From Candidatus Asgardarchaeum abyssi (GTDB lineage: Archaea; Asgardarchaeota; Asgardarchaeia; Asgardarchaeales; Asgardarchaeaceae), in the NCBI GenBank assembly GCA_040225955.1, contig JBECUL010000060.1, positions 1-12,009 on the forward strand: a stretch of DNA of 12,009 bases. The letters are read 5' to 3'. How positions within the stretch are numbered: the first letter of the stretch is position 1; each line of letters starts with the position of its first letter. The translations under genes and the position numbers were made by a program. The notes beneath the pieces are model-generated. The model saw nothing but the letters and a program-made list of their open reading frames with translations, was not told the DNA's origin and ran no database searches. Shown piece by piece: positions 5,783 to 12,009 of this stretch.

Positions 5783-7978
<2,196 letters not shown>

Positions 7979-8538: not shown

Positions 8539-8707
8539 TCCACTCATCACCTTCAGCAGAAATAAAAAAGACTCGGTTAAAAAATTTTCGTTTTTATGTT
8601 TTAAACTTCATCGAAAAATGATAAAATCATAATGTATATAGAGTCAATACATATTAATAGTCGGTTTTAATATTTAGTATGGCTTACTATCACTTTTGGT
8701 GAAAAAG

Positions 8708-9157
8708 ATGTCAAAAAGAGAAAAACGTGTACTTGTAGCTGGAACATTTGACATTATACATCCAGGCCATATCCATTTAATAAAAGAAGCGACAAAACTC
8801 GGTAAAGTTATTGTAATAGTAGCAAGAGATTCAACTGTTCGCAGAATTAAAGGAAGAGAACCAATAATCCCAGAAAGACAAAGATTAGAGGTAGTGAAAA
8901 ATATTAAAGGTGTATTCAAAGCGCGATTGGGCAATGAAGATAAGGATTTGTTAAAAGTCGTAGAAGAGGAAAAACCGGATATTATACTTCTTGGTCCAAA
9001 CCAAAACTTTAATGAAAAAGAAATAGAAGAGGAACTTAAAAGAAGAGGAATTAACGTAAAAGTTCTTAGATTAAAGAATGAACTAAAGGATTTCCCATTA
9101 CATAGTACAACAAAAATCGTTAAGAGAATTTTAGAGATTTTTAATAAGGAAAAATAA
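8708..9157 (+). CDS. ribL: FAD synthase (archaeal cytidylyltransferase-like nucleotidyltransferase)
   Basis: RVLVAGTFDIIHPGH (HxGH), VIVARD, PIIPERQRLEVV, PDIILLGPNQ and STTKI; GGTGA RBS before ATG 8708. Confidence 0.88.
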   Translation: MSKREKRVLVAGTFDIIHPGHIHLIKEATKLGKVIVIVARDSTVRRIKGREPIIPERQRLEVVKNIKGVFKARLGNEDKDLLKVVEEEKPDIILLGPNQNFNEKEIEEELKRRGINVKVLRLKNELKDFPLHSTTKIVKRILEIFNKEK

Positions 9158-9177: not shown

Positions 9178-9837
9178 TTATTCTATTAACAATTTTCTAA
9201 CTTTTTTAGTTAACCTATCAGCGATATATAGGGGTTCTGGATACTTATGGTCATGAATAAGTTTTAAAACTAGCTCATATGACTGTTCCAGATCTATGAG
9301 ATGCCCAGGAGATATATATAAATATGGTTTTCCATTTTCAAACAAAGCTCTTCCAAGAATCTCTCCATTAAAAACAACATTTGCATACCCTTTTCCAGTA
9401 TCAATTAATTTTCCAACTAAACCCTTCTTTGCTACACCGATAGATGGTTTATTTAAAATTATACCAATATGAGATGCACAACCTATCTTGCGTGGATGAA
9501 GAATTCCATGAGCGTCTATTAAAAGTATATCAGGTGATATGGTGAGATGTTTGTAAGCTACTATTATAGGTTTTACCTCTCGAAATGCTAGAAATGTTGG
9601 AATGTATGGAAATTCTACCTTATCGCGGTATATACATATTTCAATAGGACTATTTTTTAGAATGTCCCACATAACAGCCACTACAAATGCTATAGAAGAC
9701 TTATATGATATATCAAAGGCGCATATATATCTTGATTTACTTACTAAAGGATTATATTTTATGACCACTTTCTTTGAGAGATAGTTTTGCGCTAAAATTA
9801 ATTTTTTAATGGTTATTTTCTTTCTCTTTTGTTTCAT
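9178..9837 (-). CDS. nfi: Endonuclease V (inosine-specific nuclease)
   Basis: AFDISY, FPYIPTFLAFRE (PYIP wedge plus catalytic Glu), LLIDAHGILHPRKIGCASHIG, PSIGVAK, YISPGH and PEPLYIAD. Confidence 0.96.
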   Translation of the reverse strand: MKQKRKKITIKKLILAQNYLSKKVVIKYNPLVSKSRYICAFDISYKSSIAFVVAVMWDILKNSPIEICIYRDKVEFPYIPTFLAFREVKPIIVAYKHLTISPDILLIDAHGILHPRKIGCASHIGIILNKPSIGVAKKGLVGKLIDTGKGYANVVFNGEILGRALFENGKPYLYISPGHLIDLEQSYELVLKLIHDHKYPEPLYIADRLTKKVRKLLIE

Positions 9838-10469: not shown

Positions 10470-11084
10470 TTAAAATTCATAAAATGACATAACAGTACCT
10501 TCGCTAGGAGTTATTTCTAGTATATCTACTCCAAATCCAGTGGCTGCTGTACGTTTTGATCCAAATTTTACCGCATCAATTGCTACCTTTTTTGCATCCT
10601 TTAATGTTAATTCTTCAGTAACATTACTCTCTAATATTCCCAATGCGGAATCTGAGCCATATCCTATAGCAACATATTTTTCATGTTCAATAACAGAGCC
10701 CCATATATCAAGCTCATAAAGATGCATTCCAGATTCATCAATCCCACCGATTATACTAAGAGTTAGGTAAGGAGAGAATTTTGTTGATGAAAGAATTCGG
10801 CTTAATAACTTTGCAACCGCACGAGTTACTATTGAACGATTTGTTTCTAATTGCAATAAATTTATCTGGGCTCTCATATAGTTAGTCAAAATAGAGATGT
10901 CAGCAGATATTCCAGCAAAGGCTATCCCTATATTTTTTGTTAAAGGATAAACCTTCCTCGCTTTTTTGCTAATTATTAAATCATCACCATAAGAATAAAC
11001 TTTCTCCGAAGCTAATAGGATACCATCTTTTGCTTTAATCCCTATTGTAATTGTTGTTATAGGAGGATATTTTATTACAGACAT
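10470..11084 (-). CDS. psmB: 20S proteasome beta-type subunit, divergent and probably non-catalytic
   Basis: TITIGIKAKDGILLASEK, ARKVYPL, IAFAGISAD, IIGGIDESGMHLYELDIWGS and YVAIGYGS: an Ntn-hydrolase beta-subunit fold. Confidence 0.92.
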   Translation of the reverse strand: MSVIKYPPITTITIGIKAKDGILLASEKVYSYGDDLIISKKARKVYPLTKNIGIAFAGISADISILTNYMRAQINLLQLETNRSIVTRAVAKLLSRILSSTKFSPYLTLSIIGGIDESGMHLYELDIWGSVIEHEKYVAIGYGSDSALGILESNVTEELTLKDAKKVAIDAVKFGSKRTAATGFGVDILEITPSEGTVMSFYEF

Positions 11085-11137: not shown

Positions 11138-12009
11138 TTAATTTTTATTTATTATTACTTGTTTAATATTTTTAAGCAGATCACTTATTCCTTCATTCTT
11201 TATTGCGGATATAAAAATTATGTTCTCATTTATTTGCTTTTTTAACTCTTCGAATTGAACCTTAGAAGCTATATCTTTTTTATTCGCAACAGGAATTATT
11301 GGGATTTGAGGGAATAGGTTTTTTATTTCTAGAAAGAGAGAAACTTGCTGATTAATAGGAATACTAGACAAGTCACTAGGATCAAAGATAAAAATAATAA
11401 GGTCTGCCAAGTGTTTTAAAGCCGCAATTGCTTGTAGTTCAATTTTATTTCTTTTTGATATAGGACGATCAAGTAACCCAGGAGTATCAATAACTTGAAT
11501 CATAAAGCCATTTAGCTTAAGATGGCCTATTATTATATTTCTTGTAGTGAATGGATATTCTGCAATCTCTGGCTTTGCAGAAGAAATTTGTCTAACTAAG
11601 GTACTTTTACCTACATTTGGTGCTCCAGCAATAGTAATAGTTTTTAGATTTGGATCTGCGTCAGGTAATTTTGAGAGAGTTCTTCTAACATTTTCAAGAA
11701 AGATCAACCTATCATTGATATCAGATACCAATGATGCAAGACGACCAAAAGCAGCTCTTCGATAGTTAATAACCTCATTTACTTGTTTTGCAGAGAGTAT
11801 TCTTCGTGAATATTGTTTCTCTAGTTTTTTCATAACTTCTATAGCTCCAGAAATGGAGCCTAAGGCCTTTCTAATTTTGTTAACGTCAAAAAGTATATCA
11901 GCTATTTCGCGATAGAATGAATGAATATTGTCAAACGACGGATATTCTTTTACAACCTTTGTAAGTCTATTAATAACTATTTCATATGCTGTATTAAGTT
12001 TAGCATGAG
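11138..12009 (-). CDS. nog1: NOG1 family GTP-binding protein (5' end outside the window)
   Basis: G1 GAPNVGKS, G2 YPFTT, G3 DTPGLLDRP..RN.IE.QA, G4 NKKD and G5 ISA. The frame stays open upstream of 11833 to the window edge (HAKLNTAYEIV...YPSFDNIHSFYREIAD), matching the NOG1 N-terminal helical domain. Confidence 0.95.
   Translation of the reverse strand, partial: HAKLNTAYEIVINRLTKVVKEYPSFDNIHSFYREIADILFDVNKIRKALGSISGAIEVMKKLEKQYSRRILSAKQVNEVINYRRAAFGRLASLVSDINDRLIFLENVRRTLSKLPDADPNLKTITIAGAPNVGKSTLVRQISSAKPEIAEYPFTTRNIIIGHLKLNGFMIQVIDTPGLLDRPISKRNKIELQAIAALKHLADLIIFIFDPSDLSSIPINQQVSLFLEIKNLFPQIPIIPVANKKDIASKVQFEELKKQINENIIFISAIKNEGISDLLKNIKQVIINKN

Follow-up and report, generated by a model that had tools for sequence, protein, structure and literature searches.

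Results

A divergent proteasome beta subunit gene

We analyzed a 12,009-nucleotide stretch of DNA (the window), which is contig C60 of a metagenome-assembled genome (MAG) of 2.64 Mb in 189 contigs, 93.5% complete and with an estimated contamination of 7.8%. The composition of this contig is typical of the bin. The minus strand of the window carries, in this order, genes for a Nog1-type GTPase, a proteasome beta subunit (the target of this study), a translin-like protein and endonuclease V (EndoV), and a RibL-like gene converges on them from the plus strand:

11138..12009, minus strand: gene for a Nog1-type GTPase, truncated at the end of the window; a homologue is a conserved neighbor of Thr1-less beta genes in TACK and in Asgard archaea
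10470..11084, minus strand: target beta ORF, a divergent 20S proteasome beta subunit of predicted non-catalytic type, 204 amino acids
9806..10456, minus strand: translin-like gene, separated by 13 nt from the beta gene on its downstream side; conserved neighbor
9178..9837, minus strand: EndoV gene, overlapping the end of the translin-like gene; conserved neighbor
8696..9157, plus strand: RibL-like cytidylyltransferase-fold gene, convergent; in the same place and on the same strand in Desulfurococcales locus L100

Inspection of the target ORF confirmed that it is intact and full length, as the initial annotation had stated: it encodes 204 amino acids, begins with ATG at the first possible start, leaves no room for an upstream extension, and is conserved in orthologs. 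The Pfam profile PF00227 matched residues 12-190 (E 7e-44), and the NCBIfam equivalog model for archaeal beta subunits, TIGR03634, scored 182.1 bits, below its cut-off of 224. An AlphaFold model built from a 75-sequence alignment reached a pLDDT of 94.2 and a pTM of 0.90. In Foldseek searches, the best matches of this model were the Saci0662 beta chains of 6z46, the Saci0613/Saci0662 particle of S. acidocaldarius (TM 0.94-0.95, target-normalized; 44-46% identity), and superposition on chains H, I and K gave an rmsd of 1.2-1.3 A. The top matches were all beta chains (TM 0.85-0.95), and the highest-ranking eukaryotic ones included several of beta3 (chain J of 1iru and 4r3o) and of beta6 (6rgq_M). 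Saci0662 was also the best PDB match by sequence (1.3e-38). We are confident that the target belongs to the 20S proteasome beta superfamily (PF00227, Ntn-hydrolase fold), with the alpha-beta-beta-alpha sandwich of beta subunits and no N-terminal helix of the alpha type.

The catalytic relay is missing, and three substitutions stand out

Residues were numbered by aligning the target with the mature A. fulgidus (1j2q_H) and T. acidophilum (1pma_B) subunits, as well as with 25 archaeal betas. Positions -1, 1, 17, 19, 33 and 47 correspond to T10, T11, E27, V29, K44 and G58 of the target and, in the C-terminal part, positions 129, 166 and 169 correspond to Y142, T179 and T182:

11052..11057, minus strand: codons ACA ACA of Thr(-1) and Thr1, by alignment; Gly-Ala in the orthologous family, Gly-Thr in active betas
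10998..11006, minus strand: Glu17-Lys18-Val19 (E27 K28 V29); Glu17 kept, Arg19 replaced
10953..10955, minus strand: Lys33 equivalent (K44), by alignment
10911..10913, minus strand: Gly47 equivalent (G58), the oxyanion-hole glycine, by alignment
10659..10661, minus strand: Tyr129 (Y142), codon TAT; Tyr or Phe in orthologs
10539..10550, minus strand: Thr166-Ala-Ala-Thr169 (T179..T182), in place of D-x-x-S, by alignment

The GYG motif is encoded by GGA TAT GGC and the RTAATG motif by CGT ACA GCA GCC ACT GGA. Alignment and codons bore out every residue that had been reported from the sequence alone, namely Thr(-1), Thr1, Glu17, Val19, Lys33, Gly47, Tyr129 (TAT), Thr166 and Thr169. The weight given to them had to be revised by comparison with 115 betas carrying the full Thr1/Ser129/Asp166 site (full-site betas). 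Among the substitutions listed as losses, those of Gly-1, Ser129 and Asp166 stood, that of Ser169 did not, since 36 of the 115 full-site betas have Thr169, and that of Arg19 proved weak, as 35/115 have Gln or Lys there; Val or Ile at position 19 is unusual. Gly-1 is present in 104 of the same 115 sequences, against Thr(-1) in the target. Judged by this comparison, the real departures of the target are at Gly-1, Ser129 and Asp166.

Ser129 and Asp166 form a second triad that relays protons to the Thr1 amine (PMC4792962). This relay is absent from the target, which has Tyr129 and Thr166, and from its orthologs, which have Tyr/Phe129 and Ser166. The D166A change blocks autolysis in the archaeal core particle, and D166N lowers the activity of yeast beta5 by about 60% (PMC4792962). 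Given the loss of Ser129 and Asp166 and the effect of D166A, self-processing or peptide cutting by the target appears very unlikely. The target keeps the triad of Thr1, Glu17 and Lys33 as well as Gly47. Apart from Thr1, these residues are also kept by 47 to 50 of 50 Thr1-less betas; since such betas do not cut, the presence of Glu17, Lys33 and Gly47 in the target is uninformative on catalysis, and the meaning first attached to their retention falls away.

The substitutions are shared by two orthologs

A search of 5.8 billion clustered proteins (1.84 billion representatives) found just two more relatives of the target above 50% identity, P0002 (62%) and P0003 (59%). The latter is deposited as 'proteasome subunit beta [Candidatus Asgardarchaeia archaeon]' (MGQ4834083.1). 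In the alignment, P0002 reads S-T at positions -1 and 1, GYG and KRSAGTG, and P0003 reads S-T, GFG and RRSAGTG. Both keep Ser(-1), Thr1, Ile19, Tyr or Phe129, Ser166 and Thr169 in intact frames. Neither restores the GSG and RD motifs, whose return in close orthologs the initial annotation would have taken as a sign of lineage-specific decay or sequencing error. Because the same changes occur in orthologs at 59-62% identity, both decay and sequencing error are ruled out as their source.

The same gene was found on an independent 24.9-kb JGI metagenome contig, Ga0164318_10000889 (L029), at 99.2% identity; the two copies differ by 0 synonymous changes, 1 non-synonymous change and a one-codon deletion. 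The codon missing from L029 is that of Asp35 (window 10980-10982), and P0002 and P0003 are likewise one residue shorter there. The contamination estimate of the MAG leaves room for an assembly or sequencing artefact, or for a decaying pseudogene. Against this stand the second contig, the intact frames of the orthologs, the high-confidence structure model, and the typical composition of the contig, and we find such an origin scarcely credible. The gene has a narrow distribution: scans with the alignment of the three-member target clade detected no relative in metagenomes beyond the strain represented by L029 and no match among contigs of genomes, and 400 Asgard species genomes held no target ortholog above 48% identity. 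The GTDB class of the target genome contains only that genome.

Thr1, Glu17, Lys33 and Gly47 are invariant across the target clade. Two segments outside the core fold are nearly invariant as well, the N-terminal MSxIKYPP (window 11061-11084) and the C-terminal FY[EK]F (window 10470-10484), and their conservation suggests that they make contacts in an assembled particle. We considered reading the C-terminus as an HbYX motif and rejected this, as the Tyr of FY[EK]F is third-last, not penultimate.

The invariance of Thr1, Glu17, Lys33 and Gly47 would allow a residual chemical role, and hydroxyl side chains persist at positions 129, 166 and 169. One could thus picture a threonine protease that still works, in which a neighboring subunit trims the ten N-terminal residues and Thr1, Glu17 and Lys33 act together with Tyr129 and Thr166/Thr169. 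We give this picture very little chance. It has no carboxylate at position 166, where the archaeal and yeast mutations mentioned above are damaging; Glu17, Lys33 and Gly47 are kept equally in Thr1-less betas; and the near invariance of MSxIKYPP is unlike that of a discarded propeptide. Trimming by a neighbor, moreover, does not cut exactly at position 1: eukaryotic beta6 and beta7 are trimmed by a neighboring subunit, at sites that do not coincide with this position.

The target probably belongs to the Thr1-less beta family

Among the 400 Asgard genomes, the best matches of the target in other genomes were always betas reading G-A or S-A at positions -1 and 1, which keep E/D17, R19, K33, G47, S/T129, D166 and S169. 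As a rule, an Asgard genome encodes one Thr1-less beta of this sort along with one or two full-site betas. The family was found in Thermofilaceae, Desulfurococcales, Ignisphaera, Bathyarchaeia, Hecatellales, Nitrososphaeria, Methanomethylicia and Atabeyarchaeia. Its 43 named loci show the G-A signature together with the same residues from E/D17 to S169, with Ala1 in 42 and a gap in one. Over 50 aligned Thr1-less rows, position 1 is Ala in 40, Gly in 7 and Ser in 3, and D/E17 is retained in 47, K33 in 48, G47 in all 50, S/T129 in 47 and D166 in 47. All three members of the target clade have Thr at position 1.

We compared HMMs built from 95 Thr1-less betas and from the 115 full-site betas. The target clade favored the inert-family model over the canonical one by +20 to +33 bits, and still by +13 to +25 bits when the N-terminus and the active-site columns were masked. 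Both a 216-row FastTree and a careful 57-row IQ-TREE (LG+C20 PMSF) placed the target clade among the Thr1-less betas. In the careful tree, which replaced a 92-row quick tree whose constrained likelihood exceeded that of the free short search, the target lies in clade B (97/85) within the Thr1-less group (91/51), and its clade is sister to a Njordarchaeales-type group (88/82). In AU tests, for which the tree groups were named after the first tree had been seen, joining the target to the canonical betas gave a dlnL of 10.2 (p 0.096), making its clade sister to the C80-type (L004) betas described below gave 2.5 (p 0.30), and holding the Thr1-less rows together without the target gave p 0.39; none of these placements is rejected, the one with canonical betas only narrowly so. 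Support for the nesting is moderate, and the tree alone would not be decisive for the placement.

The gene neighborhood is that of the Thr1-less family. A Nog1 homologue adjoins a Thr1-less beta in about 30 Asgard loci, and this adjacency was also seen in five Thermofilaceae/Thermofilum loci and in other Thermoproteota. Desulfurococcales locus L100 has the order Nog1(-), beta(+), translin(+), EndoV(+), RibL(-), which matches that of the window, the strand of Nog1 alone differing, and Atabeyarchaeia locus L126 has Nog1(-), beta(+), then translin(+) and EndoV(+). Nog1 is co-directional with the beta gene in the window and divergent from it in other lineages, which implies a local inversion. The slot in which Nog1 and RibL flank an inert beta, a translin-like gene and EndoV is thus represented in Desulfurococcales, Thermofilaceae, Atabeyarchaeia and the target genome (L100, L126, L102 and L129).

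On the evidence of neighborhood, HMM score and, moderately, the tree, the target is this lineage's counterpart of the Thr1-less (Saci_0662-type) archaeal beta family. The initial annotation had set it apart from the Thr1-less paralogs of other archaea, a distinction that does not survive these comparisons. Since the family spans TACK and Asgard archaea, the Thr1-less state would predate this lineage, and if the target is the family's counterpart, its ancestor would already have been inert. With the Thr1-less state older, Thr1 (ACA, one transition from GCA) is most simply secondary, and Thr at position 1 is probably the product of an Ala-to-Thr change. This makes it less likely that Thr1 is a retained residue, as had been supposed.

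The stem branch of the target clade is long (0.76-0.80 substitutions per site). At seven positions where the other 95 family members show a conservation of 80% or more, the clade deviates: -1, 1, 2, 19, 53, 166 and residue 155, the last being a Tyr-to-Val change. Most clade-specific changes, with which that of Ser/Thr129 to Tyr/Phe belongs, sit at the cleft. This pattern bears on the possibility that the target acts outside the 20S particle with its Ntn fold put to a new use, for example in binding, in assembly or as a ring of its own, and with a new binding site in a pocket of Tyr129 and Phe/Tyr171. The long stem, the concentration of changes at the cleft, the conserved C-terminal FY[EK]F, and the score below the equivalog cut-off are in its favor. 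Yet outside the cleft the sequence fits the inert family, with no more than the seven deviations given above at well-conserved positions, the model superposes closely on a ring-forming beta, and without the target in a scaffold role the genome would have no scaffold beta. We regard repurposing outside the particle as quite improbable.

The genome encodes one full-site beta among three

PF00227 finds six places in the MAG: three betas, two complete alphas and one alpha-like fragment. The target is thus not the sole beta gene, a case that the initial annotation had seen as contrary to its reading; there are three betas and two to three alphas. The complete alpha genes lie on contig C69, beside the Rrp4 and SBDS genes, and on contig C7. 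The beta on C7 is canonical, with Gly(-1) followed by TTTVG, and with GSGS and RDAASG. The beta on C80 is a second degenerate one:

L004:950-1570 (G000:C80:950-1570), plus strand: second degenerate beta gene; Glu129 and Ser166, with Gly-1, Thr1, Asp17, Arg19 and Lys33 kept

It has Gly(-1) followed by TTS, and Asp17, Arg19 and Lys33, but reads AIGEGAT and KRSAFTG; its Glu129/Ser166 pair resembles a swap of the Ser/Asp pair. Its relatives P0034 and P0035 carry Asn166 together with Glu or Pro at position 129. P0035 (MGQ4915551.1), from Asgardarchaeia and annotated as hypothetical, has lost Ser129 and Asp166 and kept Gly-1, Thr1, Asp17 and Lys33. The C80 gene lies directly upstream of aCPSF1. In three other Asgard genomes (Odin-like G001, Atabeyarchaeia G011, and G040), the gene in that position is a full-site beta with the signature GTDRKGSDS. 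In G040 (C4:326928-330014), the aCPSF1 homologue gives a split match, with two segments separated by about 1.7 kb in a single open frame of 1222 aa, which suggests an intein or a large insertion.

The PF00227 scan of the MAG found no G-A-type beta. Provided that the MAG is representative, just one of the three betas of this lineage carries the full catalytic equipment; at 93.5% completeness, a fourth may be missed.

These paralogs allow a different origin to be weighed, in which the target arose within this lineage by duplication of an active beta with Thr1, perhaps as a sister of the C80 gene, and then lost its supporting residues but truly retained Thr1, Glu17 and Lys33. The AU tests leave unrejected both the position as sister to L004 and that outside the Thr1-less group, and both degenerate betas have a small residue at 166 together with Thr169. 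The position of the gene speaks against such an origin: the target occupies the Nog1/translin/EndoV/RibL slot that in TACK and Asgard archaea belongs to the G-A beta, of which the genome has no other, and the conserved slot of the L004 beta, upstream of aCPSF1, is another one. In addition, the HMM margin favors the inert family even with the active-site columns masked. We therefore hold an origin by duplication and decay to be unlikely.

The contigs with complete subunit genes are typical of the bin in GC and tetranucleotide make-up (|z| below 0.6). The alpha-like fragment (L006:1-396, plus strand; G000:C15:1-396) is cut by the contig start and has a long branch in the tree; the composition of contig C15 is slightly atypical (PC1 z 2.05), and the fragment may come from another organism. 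The genome also has PAN-like single-AAA genes, three PAC2-family genes and three Cdc48-like ATPases. One of these ATPases, a Cdc48/VAT-type double-AAA protein, is encoded in the window at 5783-7969 on the minus strand; its C-terminus (...VFPSPVT) has no obvious HbYX tail.

Discussion

Taking these results together, we propose, with a probability of roughly 70%, that the target serves as a scaffold in a ring of mixed betas whose active sites come from the C7 beta, and that the N-terminal segment of the target is probably not cleaved off at Thr1. The initial annotation had likewise named a structural subunit of a heteromeric beta ring as one of two possibilities, and this remains the best reading for a gene that is one of three beta paralogs. 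According to our model, the starting point would be an inert scaffold beta of the Saci_0662 type in a 20S proteasome whose cutting is done by a separate active beta. The cleft of this subunit, already useless, would then have been remodeled in this Candidatus Asgardarchaeia-like lineage by replacement of Gly-1 (now Thr or Ser), Ala1 (Thr), Thr2 (Ile), Arg19 (Val or Ile), Gln53 (Ser or Thr), Ser/Thr129 (Tyr or Phe) and Asp166 (Thr or Ser). The resulting protein would be unable to remove its own short N-terminal segment and would not hydrolyze peptides. It would assemble under the alpha rings with the canonical C7 beta, perhaps together with the degenerate C80 beta.

The closest studied system is that of S. 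acidocaldarius, in which Anjum et al. (2015) showed that Saci_0662 is inert, is needed for assembly with alpha, and is the major component of the ring (PMC4569737). Its catalytic partner, Saci_0909, is present at low stoichiometry (PMC4569737). The target resembles the Saci_0662 family in being matched best by it in sequence and structure, in fitting its HMM better than the canonical one, and in its Nog1/translin/EndoV neighborhood, and the target genome likewise has a separate canonical beta able to supply activity. The active-site patterns, however, are opposite. The Saci_0662 family reads G-A(T), and its R19, S/T129, D166 and S169 are nearly always conserved, whereas the target reads T-T(I), V19, Y129 and T166: it has Thr1, but the supporting relay is gone. 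Compared with canonical PsmB (T. acidophilum 1PMA, A. fulgidus 1J2Q, M. jannaschii 3H4P; TIGR03634), the target shares fold, length, Thr1, Glu17, Lys33 and Gly47, but lacks Gly-1, Ser129 and Asp166, scores 182 bits against the required 224, and is 30-34% identical in the Foldseek alignments.

Mixed rings composed mostly of non-cutting subunits are a hallmark of eukaryotes. The target resembles eukaryotic beta3, beta4, beta6 and beta7 as a non-cutting beta fold in a proposed mixed ring where activity is confined to some of the subunits. In eukaryotes, each ring has seven positions that are fixed. When the inert-family profile was run against the PDB, beta3 and beta6 did not stand out, with beta5, beta6 and beta3 scoring alike (156-141 bits). 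It is conceivable that in Asgardarchaeia-like archaea three fixed beta paralogs, one of them a full protease, make up a eukaryote-style ring, and that the scaffold, with a regained Thr1 beside its intact Glu17 and Lys33 and with an aromatic-lined pocket, has taken on a new non-hydrolytic or trans-activated function; this may be the binding of a substrate or propeptide, or a ligase-like reaction. We consider a ring of this kind, with such a function, a long shot, and continue to prefer a plain scaffold role.

To our knowledge, Sulfolobus is the only studied archaeal example of a mixed ring, and a search of the available literature library turned up no account of the beta paralog families of Asgard archaea. 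The kind of subunit is already known, as non-catalytic betas occur in the mixed rings of Sulfolobus and in eukaryotes as beta3/4/6/7; the target is a variant confined to one lineage, and its residue pattern is the inverse of that of its family. It would mean that a scaffold-type beta is still evolving within Asgard archaea and that a vestigial pocket has been rebuilt in one lineage. A compact system of three betas and two to three alphas in a relative of eukaryotes could serve as a model for the origin of subunit order, stoichiometry and active-site loss. The target also provides a natural case in which active-site residues conserved for structure may be told from those conserved for chemistry.

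Another Asgard inert beta has been degraded further, in a different way. In the Njordarchaeales-type P0047 cluster ('proteasome subunit beta [Candidatus Njordarchaeales archaeon]'), Glu17 and Lys33 are lost and position 1 is Ser (ESTNSGTDA), but Asp166 is kept. The loss of Glu17 and Lys33 marks the group of inert betas made up of the P0047 cluster, P0021 and P0084, with the signatures ESTNSGTDA, QSTSSGIDS and GSSKKGLDA.
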